IMG/VR virus record: IMGVR_UViG_3300016486_001578
Strand: one strand, 5' to 3'
DNA from: a virus
Taxonomy: Duplodnaviria; Caudoviricetes
Length of the DNA: 64,000 bases
Positions within the stretch are counted from its first letter, which is position 1. Each line of letters opens with the position of its first letter. The translations under genes and the position numbers were made by a program. Positions 2,993-18,160 of the stretch are shown one piece after another. The notes beneath the pieces were generated by a model, which worked only from the letters and a program-made list of their open reading frames with translations, was not told where the DNA came from and did no database searches.

Positions 2993-3610
2993 TTAGATTA
3001 ATTTTAAATAAAATTGATTATAATTTTTTTCACAATCCTTTGATTTGTTTAGATAAAATCTTTTATTTTTAGAATCTACTATTAAGTTTATTCCTGGTTG
3101 ACTAAATTCATCAACTAAGCATATTATTACCTTATTAATATCAATTAATCTATCATATATAATATTTATATTAATTGATAGTTTATCGAGCTCTCTTTTA
3201 AGATAGATATTATCTACCGGGTTAGTAGACGGGCCAAATATTATTGTGGTTGTTTCATATATTGATGCAATTCTCATATATAATATATTTTTTATTAACT
3301 TATCGATATACTCTCTATCATTACTAACTTTAATTACTTTTTTACACTCGAAATTAGTTATTATTTCCATCACACTTTCATAAATAGTATTTTCGTTTAT
3401 GAACCTATTACCACTAACTGTGTGTGAGGTAATTTCTCTCTTAACTTCCGATATAATTGGTTCTGGTTCATCTAATATTTTACAAATATTAGTATGTCTA
3501 TCGATTTGCTTATTTGATTTGTTCTCTATAACATATATCTGTATTATGGGCATATCAACTTCGCGCTCTTCGTAATTACATATAGATTTTACTTTATCTA
3601 TGATCTGCAT
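2993..3610 (-). CDS. Hypothetical protein
   Basis: 205-aa ORF overlapping the upstream glycosyltransferase stop. Confidence 0.55.
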   Translation of the reverse strand: MQIIDKVKSICNYEEREVDMPIIQIYVIENKSNKQIDRHTNICKILDEPEPIISEVKREITSHTVSGNRFINENTIYESVMEIITNFECKKVIKVSNDREYIDKLIKNILYMRIASIYETTTIIFGPSTNPVDNIYLKRELDKLSININIIYDRLIDINKVIICLVDEFSQPGINLIVDSKNKRFYLNKSKDCEKNYNQFYLKLI

Positions 3611-4358
3611 ATTTATTTAGCCTACCTATTTTATTTATCGATCTTTTTATCGATTTCATTAAATCATCCTTACTCATCTTAGATGTTTTATTTAATATAT
3701 CCAAGCTTCTTTGATAGAACCTTTCGTCTGGGGCTGATTTCCTGTGCCATAAATGAAAACATTTTGATTTTAATTCTGCCCATTTTAAAAAATTCTTAAC
3801 TTTCATAGTTTGGAAATCATCTTCTCCGCCCCATCCTATAAAATCTTCAGACCAACCACCTATTTTTAATATTGCGTCTCTTCTAAATATAGATATACCA
3901 CCAGATATGTTAATTTTTTGATTATCATTTTCTCCTCTTCCGGGTCTATTTATATTAATCATAGATTGTAGTGCAAAATCAGACTCTTGTGGTGTTAAAT
4001 CCACAACTGAGTTGTAGGGGCTAACCATTTCATACTCATTCATAGACCTTAAAGCATCTATAAAGTGGTTTGGATCCATTATTAGATCAGAATCACCAAA
4101 TACTATAATATCAGATTTAGCATACTTTAATCCAACATTAAAGGCCCAAGACCTATTATATGGTAGGTCACTTTTTATGAAAATATGCTGACAATTTAGA
4201 TTTATATTTGATATTTTAGAATGTGAATCTTGTTCGACTAAAATAATTTGTGAATTAGAGAAAGCATTTACCCAATCTATTGTTTTTTTAAGATTTTTTA
4301 TTCTATCTAACTTGTGTCTGTACCCAATAATAAATGTGAATGAGTGTTTATGGTTCAT
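3594..4358 (-). CDS. Glycosyltransferase (GT-A fold, GT2/GT7 galactosyltransferase-like)
   Basis: YNRSWAFNVG, DSD (DxD) and GGWSEDFIGWGGEDD motifs. Confidence 0.85.
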   Translation of the reverse strand: MNHKHSFTFIIGYRHKLDRIKNLKKTIDWVNAFSNSQIILVEQDSHSKISNINLNCQHIFIKSDLPYNRSWAFNVGLKYAKSDIIVFGDSDLIMDPNHFIDALRSMNEYEMVSPYNSVVDLTPQESDFALQSMININRPGRGENDNQKINISGGISIFRRDAILKIGGWSEDFIGWGGEDDFQTMKVKNFLKWAELKSKCFHLWHRKSAPDERFYQRSLDILNKTSKMSKDDLMKSIKRSINKIGRLNKYADHR

Positions 4359-4447
4359 GTTTTTAATTAATTTTTATAATTATTATATGATTTTTAATAT
4401 TTATGTTTAACTTTACAAACATTGATATTTATTTAAATATAATATAG

Positions 4448-12023: not shown

Positions 12024-12766
12024 AAATATATATACTCGCAGATAAAAATAATATACCATATACCGTAAATGCTTATTTAGCATATAATGGCTTTGAACAA
12101 TTGGGATATGAAGTTATCTTAATAAAGACAATCGATGATATTAAAGATAATAATCCAGAAAATATTGTATTTGCTGGTATAGGTAATGTTAAAAACTATA
12201 TTAATAATGTTTTAAAATTAGATATTGATATTGAGAATTTTGACTACCCAAGTGAACTAAGTGAATATTTAGGTCGTAATTTACATAAAGATAAGTTTAA
12301 TAAGTTTATTAGTGAATTTACTGGTGATAAACCTTTATTTATAAAACCAGTAAATGAACAAAAGCTATTCACAGGAGTTTTAATCAATGAGTATAAAGAC
12401 ATACCACCATTAAAAGAAGATATTGATATATGGGTATCAGAGCCTATTAAATTTATAACAGAATATAGATGCTTTATCTATCATAATAAAATAATAGGAT
12501 GTAAGAATTATAAAGGAAATCCCTTTAGAAGTATTGATGAAAATGTAGTCTTAGGAGCAGTTAAAGATTTTACCAAATCACCTATTTCATATTCAATCGA
12601 CTTTGGTCTAACTGATGATGGTAGAACTCTATTAGTAGAAGCTAATGACTCACATTCCTTAGGTGCTTATGGCTTGAACCCACACCTATATGCTAGAATA
12701 ATAGCAGCAAGATGGGCAGAGTTAACAAATACAAATGACTACTCCTATTATGAATTTAATATATAA
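12020..12766 (+). CDS. ATP-grasp protein (DUF4343 / R2K clade)
   Basis: DYPSELSEYLGR, FIKP, KLFTG, EYRCFI and IDFG...LVEAND motifs. Confidence 0.8.
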   Translation: MKIYILADKNNIPYTVNAYLAYNGFEQLGYEVILIKTIDDIKDNNPENIVFAGIGNVKNYINNVLKLDIDIENFDYPSELSEYLGRNLHKDKFNKFISEFTGDKPLFIKPVNEQKLFTGVLINEYKDIPPLKEDIDIWVSEPIKFITEYRCFIYHNKIIGCKNYKGNPFRSIDENVVLGAVKDFTKSPISYSIDFGLTDDGRTLLVEANDSHSLGAYGLNPHLYARIIAARWAELTNTNDYSYYEFNI

Positions 12767-12769
12767 ATA

Positions 12770-13015
12770 ATGTTTAAAATTAGAATTATAGCACAAAAAG
12801 TTTTATGCTTACTAGGTATACTAACTTCTATATTATTTATACCATATGAGTATATTATTAATAATATAGAAATTTCACCAGGTGGAACTATCGGGATGTT
12901 AGTTATATCTTTTTGTATTTTTATATTATGTATGGATGGTTTGATTGAGACAAATAATAAAGAAACAAAATATAACATATTCACAATTAATAATGATTGG
13001 AAATATAAAAGATAA
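12770..13015 (+). CDS. Small two-TM membrane protein
   Basis: Two hydrophobic segments. Confidence 0.5.
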   Translation: MFKIRIIAQKVLCLLGILTSILFIPYEYIINNIEISPGGTIGMLVISFCIFILCMDGLIETNNKETKYNIFTINNDWKYKR

Positions 13016-13018
13016 AAT

Positions 13019-13285
13019 ATGATTAAGAAGTTTGAAAATTTTGGAGAATCTAAGCTAAGTAAAGTGTGGTATTTAGAATTATATGATTTACAATATTCTC
13101 TAGTAGAGAATGATCCACTATTTATAGAGATAGAAGAATGGGTAAGTGATAATGATCATAATAATGGTTATGCATACTCTTGGAAAGTAGGAGAAGATGA
13201 TACTGCATATCCACTACTAGATAAGTATTTCATAAATAATGGGCTTATAAAAGATGATATAGTCATAGTGCATTGTCTTTGGTAA
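13019..13285 (+). CDS. Hypothetical protein with MIKKFENF N-terminus
   Basis: ORF track. Confidence 0.55.
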   Translation: MIKKFENFGESKLSKVWYLELYDLQYSLVENDPLFIEIEEWVSDNDHNNGYAYSWKVGEDDTAYPLLDKYFINNGLIKDDIVIVHCLW

Positions 13286-13510
13286 GATAAAGAATTTAAT
13301 TATTAGTATAAACGAATTTAAAACAAAAACTATGGGATATTTTATTATAACACTAATCTTTTTATTTATATGTGTGTTATTTTACAAACTTACGAATGTG
13401 AATTGGTATCATCAATTTTTAACACAAGATTTTAAAGATAAAGATTGGTTCACGAAACTTGTTAAATGGTTGGTGAATTGATTTTTTATTAAAATAAAAT
13501 AGAAAATAAA

Positions 13511-13542
13511 TTTGCAGGTATAAAAACTTTGTTATATATTTG
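13511..13542 (+). promoter_or_regulatory. Bacteroidetes sigma70-type promoter for the leader/tRNA operon
   Basis: Exact consensus: TTTG (13511-14), 20 nt, TATATTTG (13535-42). Confidence 0.7.
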
Positions 13543-13596
13543 TAGTATAATTAAAGAAAAACAAAAAGGAACAATAATAAATTAATATATAAAATT

Positions 13597-13695
13597 ATGA
13601 ACACAACAACTTTAAATACAAACTTATCACTGAGATCTCTTTTATTAAGAGAAGGGTCGGGATTTGTCTTATTTGAACGTTGTGATAGTAAATAA
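13597..13695 (+). CDS. Leu/Arg-rich attenuator leader peptide (MNTTTLNTNLSLRSLLLREGSGFVLFERCDSK)
   Basis: 7 of 9 codons at 13624-13650 are Leu or Arg; contains GTCGGGATTTGT, complementary to the 5' arm of the downstream terminator. Confidence 0.75.
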   Translation: MNTTTLNTNLSLRSLLLREGSGFVLFERCDSK

Positions 13696-13719
13696 TTACT
13701 ATAATAATATATCTAATAC

Positions 13720-13753
13720 AAACCCGATACTCATAAAAGTATCGGGTTTTTTT
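13720..13753 (+). terminator. Attenuator terminator immediately before the tRNA array
   Basis: 12-bp stem AAACCCGATACT/AGTATCGGGTTT followed by a U-tract, ending just before the first tRNA at 13756. Confidence 0.85.
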
Positions 13754-13755
13754 AT

Positions 13756-13839
13756 GCACTTGTGGTGGAATTGGTAGACACCCTGGTCTTAGAAGCCAGT
13801 GCTCGGAAGAGCGTGAGAGTTCGATTCTCTCCAAGTGTA
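13756..13839 (+). tRNA. tRNA-Leu(UAG), long variable arm
   Basis: Cloverleaf GCACTTG/CAAGTGT; anticodon loop CTTAGAA; GTTCGA T-loop; A73; CCA not encoded. Confidence 0.92.
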
Positions 13840-13846
13840 CTATAAT

Positions 13847-13933
13847 GCGGCTATGATGAAATTGGTAGCACATGCTAGACTTAAAATCTAGTGGATAGTA
13901 ATGTCCGTGCGGGTTCGACTCCCGCTAGCCGTA
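13847..13933 (+). tRNA. tRNA-Leu(UAA), long variable arm
   Basis: GCGGCTA/TAGCCGT acceptor; CTAGA-CTTAAAA-TCTAG anticodon arm; GGTTCGACTCC. Confidence 0.92.
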
Positions 13934-13940
13934 CAAAAAT

Positions 13941-14013
13941 GGCCCTATGGTGTAACTGAATAACACACACGCCTTCTAAGCGTATATTCCAAGTTTGAAT
14001 CTTGGTAGGGTCA
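13941..14013 (+). tRNA. tRNA-Arg(UCU)
   Basis: GGCCCTA/TAGGGTC acceptor; anticodon loop CTTCTAA. Confidence 0.85.
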
Positions 14014-14026
14014 CAAAAAATTAAAT

Positions 14027-14101
14027 GCTCTGGTAGCCCAATTGGAAGAGGCAATAGTTTTAGAAACTATACAGGTGTGGGTTCAAATCCCACTCGGAGT
14101 A
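14027..14101 (+). tRNA. tRNA with UAG (Leu) anticodon and short variable loop
   Basis: GCTCTGG/TCGGAGT acceptor; ATAGT-TTTAGAA-ACTAT; only about 6 nt before the T-arm GTGGG-TTCAAAT-CCCAC; A73. Confidence 0.85.
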
Positions 14102-14105
14102 CAAT

Positions 14106-14186
14106 GTCTCAGTAGTCCCAGTTGTCTTCTAAACAACTACGGGTAATTGGATGCTGAAAATATAGGTTCGAATCCTATCTGAGACA
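14106..14186 (+). tRNA. Atypical tRNA-Arg(UCU)-like RNA lacking a canonical D-arm
   Basis: Perfect acceptor GTCTCAG/CTGAGAC, 6-bp anticodon stem with CTTCTAA loop, about 23-nt variable region, canonical T-arm. Confidence 0.7.
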
Positions 14187-14191
14187 CAAAT

Positions 14192-14242
14192 ATCTTGGTG
14201 GTGAAACCGTGTACGCTGCGGGTTCGACTCCCGTCCAAGATA
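14192..14242 (+). ncRNA. Anticodon-less tRNA-like mini-RNA (acceptor stem plus T-arm)
   Basis: ATCTTGG/CCAAGAT stem and GCGGG-TTCGACT-CCCGT T-arm separated by about 19 nt. Confidence 0.6.
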
Positions 14243-14257
14243 CAAAATGAAAGTAAA

Positions 14258-14431
14258 ATGATAATAGAGATAGATAATAAGACATATTTGGTAGAACCTT
14301 GTAAGCATTGTAAAAGAGATGATATCATTTATATAGAGAGTGATTTACCATGGAGTGATAGTAAATTTATATGTGATTTCTGTTGCTCTACCTATTCAAT
14401 ATTTGATACTAATATAGCAAATAAGATATAA
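14258..14431 (+). CDS. Small zinc-ribbon protein inside the tRNA array
   Basis: CKHC...CDFC; ATG at 14258 is in frame with track ORF 14195-14431. Confidence 0.55.
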   Translation: MIIEIDNKTYLVEPCKHCKRDDIIYIESDLPWSDSKFICDFCCSTYSIFDTNIANKI

Positions 14432-14450
14432 ATTTGAATAAGAAAAATAA

Positions 14451-14524
14451 GGCTTTGTATCATAATCGCATAATGAAATAGTTTCCTAAACTATCCTATG
14501 TGGGTTGGAATCCCTCCGAAGTCA
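14451..14524 (+). tRNA. tRNA-Arg(CCU)
   Basis: GGCTTTG/CGAAGTC acceptor; ATAGT-TTCCTAA-ACTAT; atypical TTGGAAT T-loop. Confidence 0.8.
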
Positions 14525-14542
14525 CAAATAAAAAAATAAAAT

Positions 14543-14584
14543 ATGAAAACTAAAAATACATTACTACTACTACTCAAAGAATGA
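14543..14584 (+). CDS. Leucine attenuator leader peptide (MKTKNTLLLLLKE)
   Basis: Five tandem Leu codons TTA CTA CTA CTA CTC directly upstream of a terminator and leuS. Confidence 0.85.
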   Translation: MKTKNTLLLLLKE

Positions 14585-14615
14585 TTCTTCTTTAGTATAG
14601 TAATACCTTATACTC

Positions 14616-14647
14616 AAGTCTTATCATTAATTTGATAAGACTTTTTT
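14616..14647 (+). terminator. Attenuator terminator upstream of leuS
   Basis: 11-bp stem AAGTCTTATCA/TGATAAGACTT plus U-tract. Confidence 0.85.
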
Positions 14648-14673
14648 GTTAAAAAAAATTAAAAATATAAATC

Positions 14674-16299
14674 ATGAATATAAAAGAAATAGAAAAAAAG
14701 TGGCAAAATAAATGGATAGAAGATAATTCATTTAAATTTGATGTAAACTCTAATAAAGAGAAGAAGATTATCATACCTATGTTTCCTTACCCCTCTGGTA
14801 ATATACATATGGGTCATATGAGAAATTATACAATATCGGATGTGATTGCTAGATATTGGCGAAATAAAGGATTTAACGTTTGTCATCCAATGGGTTGGGA
14901 CTCATATGGTTCACCAGCAGAAAGTGCTGCTATAAATAATAATGTACATCCAAAAGAATGGACTGATATCAATATTAAGAATATGAAAGAGCAAATGATT
15001 AGAATGGGTATGTCATTTGATTGGAGTAGAGAAATATCAACATGCGAGGTAGACTATTGGAAAAATGAACAGAAGTTCTTTATTGATATGTGGAAAAAAG
15101 GATATATTGATAAGAAGATTGGTTATGTAAACTGGGATCCAATAGATGAGAGTGTGGTTTCAAATGAACAAGTTATAGATGGTAAAGGGTGGAGAACAGG
15201 TGCTATAATAGAACAAAAAGAAATGATACAATATTACTTTAAAACAACTATGTTTAAAGATGATATGATGAATGTATCCTCTTGTGAAGAATGGCCTGAT
15301 AATATTACTAAGCAACAAGTAAACTTCATGAGTAAGGGTATAAGAAATGGTGATGATATAAACCCATTCTCAGATTGGTGTGTATCAAGACAGAAATATT
15401 GGGGAACACCAATACCTATGATCAATTGTGACAAATGTGGAACTATTCCAAATGAGAATATCCCAGTAGTAGCACCAATTGATGTTGACTTTAATGGAAA
15501 GGGTAATCCTATAAGAAATCATGCAACATGGGCGAATATAAAATGCCCAAATTGTGGTGGTGATGCTGAGAAAGAAACAGATACAATGGATACATTTGTT
15601 CAATCATCTTGGTACTTTATAAGATATATCTCAGATTTTTTTAATGGTGAGTTCGATCATGATGTTATTAAAAAAATGTTCCCAATTGATTACTATATTG
15701 GTGGCTCAGAACATGCTAATAGTCATATGATTTATTCTAGATTTTTTTGGAGAGTTTTTAAAGAAATGAATTATATACCTAAAAATACCTCAATAGAACC
15801 ATTTAAAAAAGTAATAACACAAGGTATGGTGAAAAATGGTGGGAAAAAGATGAGTAAATCAGCAGGTAATGGTATATCACCAATTGATGTAGTTGATAAA
15901 TATGGTTGTGATGTTGTAAGAATGTATATGATGTTCAGTGGACCAGTTGAACAAGATATTGATTGGAATGAAGATGGTATAAAAGGTGTGTCTAGATTTA
16001 TAACTAAAATTATAAATGCTATAACTAAAATAAAAGATAAAGATTTCATATATATTAAAAATGTAAAAAATGAACAAATATCTAAAACTAAAATAGAAGA
16101 ATTGAATAAAAGAATTGAAAATGTATATGAAGATAATATGAAATTTAATACAATAATAGCATTTTCAATGGAAACATATAATGCAATATCAAAAACAACT
16201 GATATAAATATATGGAAAGAGGGAATAGATACCATAATGCGTGGTATAGGTCCAATAATTCCACATATTTATAGTGAAAATTATGAAAATTATGAATAG
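14674..16299 (+). CDS. leuS: Minimal leucyl-tRNA synthetase (no CP1 editing domain, no C-terminal domain)
   Basis: MFPYPSG, HMGH (HIGH), DWCVSRQKYWGTPIP, TDTMDTFVQSSWY, YIGGSEHA and KMSKS; only 541 aa. Confidence 0.92.
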   Translation: MNIKEIEKKWQNKWIEDNSFKFDVNSNKEKKIIIPMFPYPSGNIHMGHMRNYTISDVIARYWRNKGFNVCHPMGWDSYGSPAESAAINNNVHPKEWTDINIKNMKEQMIRMGMSFDWSREISTCEVDYWKNEQKFFIDMWKKGYIDKKIGYVNWDPIDESVVSNEQVIDGKGWRTGAIIEQKEMIQYYFKTTMFKDDMMNVSSCEEWPDNITKQQVNFMSKGIRNGDDINPFSDWCVSRQKYWGTPIPMINCDKCGTIPNENIPVVAPIDVDFNGKGNPIRNHATWANIKCPNCGGDAEKETDTMDTFVQSSWYFIRYISDFFNGEFDHDVIKKMFPIDYYIGGSEHANSHMIYSRFFWRVFKEMNYIPKNTSIEPFKKVITQGMVKNGGKKMSKSAGNGISPIDVVDKYGCDVVRMYMMFSGPVEQDIDWNEDGIKGVSRFITKIINAITKIKDKDFIYIKNVKNEQISKTKIEELNKRIENVYEDNMKFNTIIAFSMETYNAISKTTDINIWKEGIDTIMRGIGPIIPHIYSENYENYE

Positions 16300-16309
16300 A
16301 AAACTAAAA

Positions 16310-17359
16310 ATGAATAAAGTAGATAAAAAATATTTAAAACTTCTTAAAAAAATTTTAAAAAAAGGAATAGTTAAAAAAGATAGAACCAGAACTGGGACAA
16401 TATCCTTATTTGGTCATTCGATGCGTTTTAACATGAGTGATGGCTTTCCACTATTAACGTCTAAAAAAATGTTTACAAAAGCAATAATAATTGAATTAAT
16501 ATGGTTTATAAATGGAGATACTAATATTAAATATTTAGTTGACAATGGATGTAATATCTGGAATGGAGACGCTTATAAAAATTATTGTAATAAGTATTGG
16601 ACATTAGATGAATTATGTAAAATTGAATATGGTAGCTCATATTATGATCATGAGTTAAATGAATATAATTTTGAAGTTTGGACAATTGAAAAATTTATTG
16701 AGAAAATAAAAACAGATGATGTCTTCTGTAAAAAATGGGGTGAGTTGGGACCAGTATATGGGAGACAATGGCGTGATTTTAATGGCGTTGATCAATTTAA
16801 AGATTTGTTAGAAACTCTTAAAAAAAATCCGGACTCTAGAAGAATGATGGTTAGTGCATGGGATCCATCAAAACTTAATGAAATGGTTCTACCACCTTGC
16901 CACTTTAACTTCCAATGTTATACAACAGAAATGACTTACAATGAAAGAATTAAAAGGTGGTTAAAATCTATCAATAAAGATGAATCATATTCAAAAGAAA
17001 TGACAATGGAAAAATTAGATTTACAAGGATTTCCAAAAAGAAAATTGGATATAAAATGGAGTCAACGCAGTTGCGATTTTTTCCTAGGAATTCCGTTCAA
17101 TATAGCATCCTATGGTCTCCTACTACATTTATTAGCAAAAGAAGTTAATATGATTCCTAATGATTTAATATTTTCCGGTGGAGATTGTCACATCTACCTA
17201 AATCATATAGATGTTGTTAAAGAACAATTAAAAAGTGAAACATTTAAATTATGTAATTTGGAGTTATTGAATAACTCAATATTTAATTTAAAATATGAGG
17301 ATTTTAAGATTCTAAATTATAAATCTTCCCCTGTATTAAAAGGAAAATTATCAAATTAA
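16310..17359 (+). CDS. thyA: Thymidylate synthase (complete)
   Basis: PPCH, QRSCDFFLGIPFNIASY and DCHIY; likely start MNKVD at 16310. Confidence 0.95.
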   Translation: MNKVDKKYLKLLKKILKKGIVKKDRTRTGTISLFGHSMRFNMSDGFPLLTSKKMFTKAIIIELIWFINGDTNIKYLVDNGCNIWNGDAYKNYCNKYWTLDELCKIEYGSSYYDHELNEYNFEVWTIEKFIEKIKTDDVFCKKWGELGPVYGRQWRDFNGVDQFKDLLETLKKNPDSRRMMVSAWDPSKLNEMVLPPCHFNFQCYTTEMTYNERIKRWLKSINKDESYSKEMTMEKLDLQGFPKRKLDIKWSQRSCDFFLGIPFNIASYGLLLHLLAKEVNMIPNDLIFSGGDCHIYLNHIDVVKEQLKSETFKLCNLELLNNSIFNLKYEDFKILNYKSSPVLKGKLSN

Positions 17360-18160
17360 AATATAATTAATAAACCTAGGATTATCTGACAAACATCTCC
17401 ATCTAATTGTCACCACAGGTAATCCTATATCTTTTGATGCATCATGATAGGATTCATAAATTATTCCATCAACTGATAATTTAATTCTATTTATGGGCTT
17501 TTTACCAATTCTTTTTTGTCTAATTTTATCCTTGCTTTCCTCACTATGTTTTTTCCCATAAAAGTGATTTTTATCACCTATTCTTTCAGATGCACTTTTT
17601 GATAATTTATCACTTATAATATTTGCTCTTTCTAAACCATATAATTCAATATTAGTCTTTCCCTTATTAATTGGCTCTATTCCAATTCTTCTCAAAGATG
17701 CAATTTCTCTCATCTCATCATTCCACCTTTTACCATAATTTGGATTTGACTCACCAGATTTACCCCATTTTTCTACCCTTTCTTCCTTTGACATATTAGA
17801 TATTTTATTATTTAAAGTCTCTGTAATTCGTTTAATTATATCTTCTCTATTTGGATTATTAGTCAAATTATCACCACCTGATGCGTTTTTACCTATATTG
17901 AAACCATTATTATTAAATGGTTGAAACTCATCAATAAAATATTAATCTCTTATAAGTAGTTGATCTATTTCACATAATTCTAAAATTTCAAACTTAAAAT
18001 TGTTTATACCATATTTATCAAATGCTCTTTGTAAATGTATATTTATGTGTTTATTCCCATTTAGGTCATTTATATGCCTCCTCCATCTTTTTCTAATATT
18101 ATTTGATGAGCCTATGTAAAGTTTATCATTACAAGTTATTTTATATATTCCTATTTCCAT
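17351..18160 (-). pseudogene. GIY-YIG homing endonuclease with NUMOD3 motif, in-frame TAA at 17942-17944
   Basis: GIYKIT...LYIGSS. Track ORFs 17942-18160 and 17351-17866 are in one frame separated by GAT-TAA, where the paralog has Glu-Gln. Confidence 0.85.

Follow-up and report, generated by a model that had tools for sequence, protein, structure and literature searches.

A conserved leucine-codon leader probably places a huge-phage leucyl-tRNA synthetase gene under transcription attenuation

Results

The IMG/VR virus record IMGVR_UViG_3300016486_001578 (Duplodnaviria; Caudoviricetes) was analysed as a stretch of 64,000 nucleotides (nt), hereafter the window, with a G+C content of 27.9%. We focused on the region upstream of its leucyl-tRNA synthetase (LeuRS) gene, leuS (14674-16299), which lies on the plus strand like all other window features described below. 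An earlier note on this DNA had proposed that leuS is controlled by a leucine-codon leader peptide through transcription attenuation. The LeuRS protein of the window is recorded on one 548,945-base pair (bp) contig only, and the nearest named relatives are uncultured huge phages of 635-735 kb. With 541 amino acids (aa), the leuS product is a bacterial-type LeuRS (TIGR00396, 588.6 bits versus a cut-off of 548.4). Both the CP1 editing domain and the C-terminal domain are missing, and its alignment with the LeuRS of Mycoplasma mobile (3ziu), another enzyme without CP1, extends from end to end. The following gene, thyA (16310-17359; Pfam Thymidylat_synt, 1e-90), starts 11 nt past the leuS stop codon. 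No terminator was found between the two genes when both strands were scanned from 13200 to 17600, and they are probably co-transcribed.

Upstream of leuS we found an open reading frame (ORF) of 13 codons (14543-14584, encoding MKTKNTLLLLLKE), with its ATG at 14543, its TGA at 14582-84 and five consecutive Leu codons, TTA CTA CTA CTA CTC, at 14561-14575. Its ATG lies 17 nt past the end of tRNA-Arg(CCU) (14451-14525; ARAGORN; Rfam tRNA, 46.5 bits), the last gene of a tRNA array, and the tRNA and the leader are probably on one transcript. Minimum free energy (MFE) folds place a hairpin, termed 1:2, at 14560-14604. The Leu codons fall within its 5' arm (14560-14581), the loop contains the stop codon and the 3' arm comprises 14588-14604. 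The intrinsic terminator 3:4 follows at 14616-14647, with an 11-bp stem (AAGTCTTATCA / TGATAAGACTT, 14616-26 / 14633-43), a 6-nt loop, a T-run to 14647 and a folding energy of -12.8 kcal/mol. Only one other terminator-like site exists on either strand between 13200 and 17600, and it belongs to a first attenuator located further upstream. The A-rich spacer at 14648-14673 is the leuS translation-initiation region, and an alignment showed that its motif AAAAAATTAAAAATA is conserved in relatives.

The sequence statements of the earlier note (ORF, Leu codons, pairings, terminator and leuS start) all hold. Its 'protector' pairing is the MFE helix of 14560-81 with 14588-604, and the 11-bp terminator is present, with the leuS ATG 27 nt past the T-run. 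The 155-nt region folded with a z-score of -4.3, and none of 200 shuffles folded as well. Based on these folds, hairpin 1:2 is likely to act as an anti-antiterminator and pause hairpin.

The window LeuRS belongs to a clade of about 45 metagenome proteins of ~540 aa that are 57-78% identical to it. We compared the window with the DNA around 12 clade members, giving 13 distinct loci. In 11 of the 13, the window included, an ORF of 13-20 codons with at least three consecutive Leu codons starts 125-146 nt before the downstream gene. It is accompanied in each case by a hairpin with the Leu codons in its 5' arm and then by a strong terminator ~25-30 nt before the ATG. All nine loci that we folded have a comparable hairpin across their Leu codons. 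The upstream neighbour differs: the window has a tRNA gene there, L004 and L088 have a gene on the same strand, and a divergent gene also occurs among the contexts. The module therefore travels with leuS and not with its neighbour. Applying the same detector, we found this configuration at none of 70 bacterial-type leuS loci and at one of the 55 long ORFs of the window, namely leuS. A metagenome scan returned almost only bacterial full-length LeuRS, which served as negative controls. Scanning IMG/VR with the single LeuRS protein yielded no relatives, while an alignment as query yielded three loci. One of these duplicates L097, and the other two belong to an N-terminally shorter lineage with leuS behind tRNA-Leu arrays.

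The leader peptides of the ten relatives are MRTNNALLLLLNKTDNDLV (L003), MKTNNTLLLLLRKE (L004), MKANRTSLLLLLNKQVNDLI (L088), MNTKTMNDNKFSLLLGSR (L089), MKQNSLLLALLLDLAFVW (L091), MKFNVVNNSLLLSVMQNR (L092), MNINANTLLLLTLL (L094), MKFISTYSLLLSALRKC (L097), MKRLLLKYKNTVHLLW (L100) and MNFKSTYNLLLISS (L101). The Leu run is the sole feature common to all 11. In L004, the closest relative of the window, six codons differ synonymously with the peptide kept, and four of these are among the five Leu codons. The earlier note had assigned a special role to CTA, as the codon read by the phage tRNA-Leu(UAG), and this part of the proposal was not borne out by the relatives. Nine leaders together contain 20 TTA, 12 CTA, 4 CTT, 4 CTC and 1 TTG, making TTA the commonest run codon (20/41). 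In the genes of the window, CTA accounts for 16% and CTC for 1.5% of the Leu codons. Judged by codon content, such a mixture of TTA and CTN would suit a sensor of overall leucylation better than one of a single isoacceptor.

A fold of the truncated RNA predicted an antiterminator, 2:3, at 14580-14628, which consists of the pairings 14580-85/14623-28, 14590-92/14616-18 and 14594-600/14608-14 and occupies seven of the 11 nt of the terminator 5' arm. The latter two pairings had been described in the earlier note, and its CTTTAGTATA:TATACTCAAG pairing belongs to the predicted antiterminator. It had missed the outer helix, 14580-85/14623-28, which sequesters the upper terminator arm. The 3-bp invasion alone gives the stalled-state structure about -4.7 kcal/mol, versus -10.4 kcal/mol with the outer helix. 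Comparison of the window with L004 reveals a compensatory T:A to C:G exchange in the terminator, and seven of ten consensus pairs have double changes across the nine loci. The MAFFT alignment of the nine leaders is too loose for covariation counts in 1:2 and 2:3, and the terminator was the sole consensus structure to emerge.

To account for the order of synthesis, we folded the nascent RNA of the nine loci up to the terminator loop, i.e. with the terminator 3' arm not yet made. With no ribosome on the leader, 1:2 forms and the terminator 5' arm is mostly unpaired (arm pairing 0.06-0.40). A stall on the Leu codons lets region 2 pair with the terminator 5' arm (0.50-0.83), and the energy of this state is -10 to -13 kcal/mol in eight loci and -5.7 kcal/mol in L089. 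A ribosome that has reached the stop codon covers region 2, and arm pairing falls to 0.02-0.44. Over the nine loci, mean arm pairing in the stalled state was 0.70, versus 0.39 after shuffling of region 2, and none of 300 shuffles exceeded 0.57. For the window alone, the stalled-state energy was -10.4 kcal/mol versus -4.0 +/- 2.3 kcal/mol after shuffling, with 4 of 300 shuffles reaching the observed value. The models thus describe mutually exclusive 1:2, 2:3 and 3:4 pairings, in which region 1 lies over the regulatory codons and the position of the stop codon lets a terminating ribosome block region 2.

Taken together, the comparative and folding evidence strongly supports the proposal that a Leu-codon leader-peptide attenuator controls the phage leuS. 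We consider it very probable that a transcription attenuator of the pheST/leuL type makes leuS, and probably thyA as well, responsive to charged tRNA-Leu. RNA polymerase would transcribe the leader while a ribosome translates it. When Leu-tRNA-Leu is plentiful, the ribosome would run to the UGA at 14582 and cover region 2, so that the terminator forms and transcription ends at about 14647. When charged tRNA-Leu is scarce, the ribosome would stall on the first Leu codons (14561-14569) and thereby melt 1:2. Region 2 would then pair with 14608-14628 before the terminator 3' arm is made, and the polymerase would continue into leuS-thyA. Without a ribosome, 1:2 would form first, followed by termination. 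Translation of the leader, its coupling to the polymerase and regulated read-through are the steps that we infer in this scheme.

Several points weigh against attenuation. Coupling of transcription and translation in the host is assumed. The helices of the window are AU-rich and modest (about -10 kcal/mol), and without a ribosome its 1:2 and 2:3 are nearly iso-energetic. If the ribosome is assumed to cover 13 nt counted from the first A-site base, the outer helix is available, and the full antiterminator can form, only when the stall falls within the first three Leu codons; a stall on the last one leaves -4.7 kcal/mol. The single-locus shuffle test is weak for L089 and L091, and so is its arm-pairing measure for the window and L097. 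We also dropped a purely thermodynamic switch: equilibrium folds with a masked ribosome kept the terminator in every ribosome state and at every locus. Because the equilibrium favours the terminator, antitermination must be kinetic and co-transcriptional. The equilibrium of the trp leader likewise prefers the terminator, according to published energies.

This equilibrium preference would also suit another explanation. Here the hairpin would merely end the upstream tRNA operon, or would act constitutively as a partial terminator, the mini-ORF would have arisen by chance in AT-rich DNA, and expression of leuS would depend on leaky read-through or on a different promoter. Leu runs are indeed common: the window contains nine six-frame runs of at least five Leu, and 10 of its 914 short ATG ORFs have at least four in a row. 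Because they are so frequent at 27.9% G+C, the Leu run alone is weak evidence. Furthermore, two of the 13 loci, L002 and L102, have no leader. In L002, on a cut contig, a 248-aa ORF abuts leuS. In L102, the upstream gene ends in a terminator and a TATATTTG box comes next, 5 nt from the leuS ATG; this arrangement illustrates an ungated leuS. However, the combination of ORF, Leu run, hairpin 1:2 and terminator was seen with the same spacing in 11 loci whose upstream genes are unrelated, and the Leu codons turn over synonymously. The configuration is nearly absent from the control loci (0/70 and 1/55), and the complementarity between region 2 and the terminator arm exceeds that of shuffles. No promoter box follows the terminator either. 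Hence it is the controls and the conservation that settle the case, not the Leu run by itself. While the run alone is not beyond chance, the whole configuration with its conservation in 11 diverged loci is, and we regard the mere-terminator explanation as very improbable.

A second alternative accepts the switch but has it set by LeuRS or uncharged tRNA-Leu binding to the leader RNA, in a thrS-like or T-box-like manner, instead of by ribosome speed. Many aminoacyl-tRNA synthetase (aaRS) genes are under such control, by the T-box in Firmicutes and at thrS in E. coli. Hairpin 1:2 displays the Leu codons, and the anticodon of tRNA-Leu could in principle pair with them. However, an Rfam cmscan of 12500-15500 with E-values up to 10 gave no match to leader families or the T-box between 14526 and 14680, and no tRNA-like fold was seen. 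Moreover, the conserved feature is an ORF, with its start, stop and frame, whose Leu codons turn over synonymously, and RNA-protein or RNA-tRNA recognition predicts nothing of the kind. We therefore give this alternative very little weight and retain the leader-peptide attenuator. As read here, the element works like the Rfam leader families and the T-box, but is a member of no curated family.

The control of thyA, which the earlier note had suggested as a possibility, would be a property of the window rather than of the clade. Co-regulation with leuS is likely in the window because of the 11-nt gap and the lack of a terminator between the genes, but it is not conserved, since other loci have other genes downstream.

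The genes of the window also carry indications of the host. A Shine-Dalgarno-like 4-mer preceded none of the 55 long ORFs, and the leader ORF is likewise without a Shine-Dalgarno sequence. Starts of the long ORFs are embedded in sequence with 51% A, and the context upstream of the leader ORF is A-rich, too. Motifs resembling promoters follow the Bacteroidetes TTTG / TAnnTTTG pattern (consensus from PMC7366714). A Bacteroidetes-type host is therefore probable, given the missing Shine-Dalgarno sequences, the A-rich starts and the TAnnTTTG-type promoters. The standard genetic code fits, and we rejected an alternative one, since each of the three stop codons is in use and table 11 leaves 78% of the window coding.

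The Bacteroidetes-type promoter pattern has nine matches in the window versus five expected, and TAnnTTTG alone is frequent (91 occurrences). Between 14437 and 14732, TAnnTTTG does not occur. An independent leuS promoter between 14648 and 14673 would have spoken against attenuation, as the earlier note had pointed out, and in silico no such motif is present there. A sigma-70 scan remained at chance (28 found versus 31.6 expected), and this consensus is not relevant for a Bacteroidetes-type host; the only sigma-70-like match near the leuS start overlaps the terminator. In L089 (1605-1625) and L094 (1845-1868), TATATTTG boxes are located 4-5 nt before the ATG of the leader ORF, as is the box of L102 (1180-1203) before leuS. 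Judging from this spacing, the mRNAs would be leaderless or nearly so in these three phages.

Further upstream, the first attenuator (13511-13755) precedes the Leu/Arg tRNA array (13756-14186; ARAGORN). It comprises a TTTG/TATATTTG promoter match found by pattern search (13511-42), a leader of 32 aa rich in Leu and Arg (13597-13695) and a 12-bp terminator (13720-49) that ends a few nt before tRNA-Leu(UAG). The core of this leader, LSLRSLLLR, is encoded with TTA/CTG/CTT and AGA codons. In the stalled state its predicted antiterminator is GUCGGGAUUUGU:ACAAACCCGAU, where GUCGGGAUUUGU is inside the leader ORF and its partner is the terminator 5' arm. Arm pairing is 0.58-0.88 with a ribosome stalled at codons 6-17 and 0.10-0.13 with a ribosome at codon 25 or at the stop, GUCGGGAUUUGU being covered once the ribosome passes codon 18. 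Within the array, ARAGORN reports a 94-nt 'tRNA-Arg(UCU)' (14092-14186), overlapping the end of tRNA-Leu(UAG). The sole Rfam match there is tRNA-Sec-like and below threshold (14105-14186, 24.8 bits), and the gene is an atypical tRNA-like one. Between the tRNA genes lies a 57-aa Cys-rich ORF (14258-14431) with a zinc-ribbon-like CxxC ... CxxCC pattern; read as a longer ORF with a TTG start, it has no Pfam match.

According to the earlier note, the two attenuators form a two-tier cascade, in which tRNAs are released first and LeuRS is made only if Leu codons still stall ribosomes. In its strict form, leuS would be transcribed only from the promoter at 13511-42, and read-through of both terminators would be required. 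Both attenuators are on one strand with only tRNAs and the 57-aa ORF between them, the first also shows a stall-dependent antiterminator logic in silico, and a promoter adjacent to the leader is missing from L004 and L088 as well. On the other hand, an uncertain second promoter match of the Bacteroidetes type, TTTG-N23-TAAATTTG, was found by pattern search at 14402-36, in the 3' end of the 57-aa ORF and before tRNA-Arg(CCU), i.e. between the attenuators. In addition, the leuS leader has its own TAnnTTTG box in seven of the 11 leader loci (L003, L089, L091, L092, L094, L097 and L100), and therefore the leuS leader module works alone. The cascade is thus not established, and we lean somewhat against a strict series gate while regarding it as a serious possibility. 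Broader still is the notion of a phage-autonomous, demand-driven module for leucine decoding, in which serial Leu-sensing attenuators would release tRNA-Leu and tRNA-Arg first and then a minimal LeuRS if Leu codons still stall. We consider this notion speculative and rather unlikely. If it were true, the phage could tell tRNA shortage from charging failure, e.g. after host shut-off or when a host defence depletes or cleaves tRNA-Leu.

Relatives of a second LeuRS lineage (L001, L005 and L007; ~508 aa), which also lacks the first ~27 residues, have leuS directly behind tRNA-Leu arrays. In relatives with this arrangement, a Leu-rich leader and a terminator stand before the array itself, the leader being MKNNINTLVLLLNNLLLQSNRTGRVIQMC in L007 (880-1057) and MNNILHINLLNSLCLLGIKLIG in L001 (2695-2830). 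Between the leader terminator and the first tRNA-Leu, L001 (2855-3000) and L005 (1940-2080) share a conserved element with a long-range stem, AGATTGCTT ... AAGCAATCT, and a T-arm-like GGTTCGA(A/G)TCCAACC inside. ARAGORN made no call here, and from its sequence the element may be a tRNA-like or permuted tRNA gene. In L001, from the 735-kb phage LR756501, a 256-aa ORF (3605-4375) lies between the tRNA-Leu array and leuS. Its N-terminus appears GIY-YIG-like by eye, and it may be a homing-endonuclease insertion that parts leuS from its upstream signals. The 248-aa ORF of L002 may be similar to it.

Discussion

Huge phages possess many tRNA and aaRS genes, which raises the question of when and why they use them. 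A conserved attenuator would imply that LeuRS is made on demand, at a shortage of charged tRNA-Leu, and not constantly. The question of when huge phages deploy translation genes thereby becomes testable with simple reporter constructs. In addition, the search rule that emerges, a short ORF with a run of cognate codons followed by a terminator, could help to annotate the regulation of translation genes in uncultured phages.

The mechanism itself is textbook, being of the trp, leu and pheST type, and it is conserved across a clade of huge phages. Our findings would extend leader-peptide attenuation to viruses and to Bacteroidetes-type expression signals. In the literature that we searched, we found no description of leader-peptide control of phage aaRS genes. 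Signs of leader-peptide attenuation were seen in a flavobacterium transcriptome (PMC9723704), and it was suggested from a Bacteroides transcriptome (PMC7366714).

Among known systems, E. coli pheST has been cited as precedent for attenuators on aaRS genes (PMC1262725). In both cases an aaRS gene lies behind a leader peptide with a run of cognate codons and 1:2 / 2:3 / 3:4 pairings. However, there is no sequence relationship, and another amino acid is sensed. Furthermore, pheST is cellular and has sigma-70 and Shine-Dalgarno signals. The leuS described here belongs to a huge phage and has Bacteroidetes-type signals and a tRNA gene 17 nt upstream of its leader. The leader of the enterobacterial leu operon (leuL) likewise has consecutive Leu codons, and CTA CTA CTA CTC of the window resembles the three CUA codons of the Salmonella leu leader, which raise its sensitivity (PMC1183508). 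Yet leuL governs leucine biosynthesis while the phage leader precedes the synthetase gene, and the CTA preference is not kept among the phage relatives. Closest in the gene controlled are the classical attenuators predicted for leuS and trpS in Streptomyces (PMC1262725): in S. avermitilis and S. coelicolor, leuS has a leader ORF with Leu codons, an antiterminator and a terminator, and these are predicted only, as here. They differ in residing on high-GC actinobacterial chromosomes and in preceding a full-length LeuRS, and nothing suggests common descent with the phage element. The T-box of Firmicutes, finally, shares the signal, charged versus uncharged tRNA, and the output, terminator read-through into an aaRS gene, but it senses the tRNA directly and without translation, whereas the phage element conserves a translatable ORF.

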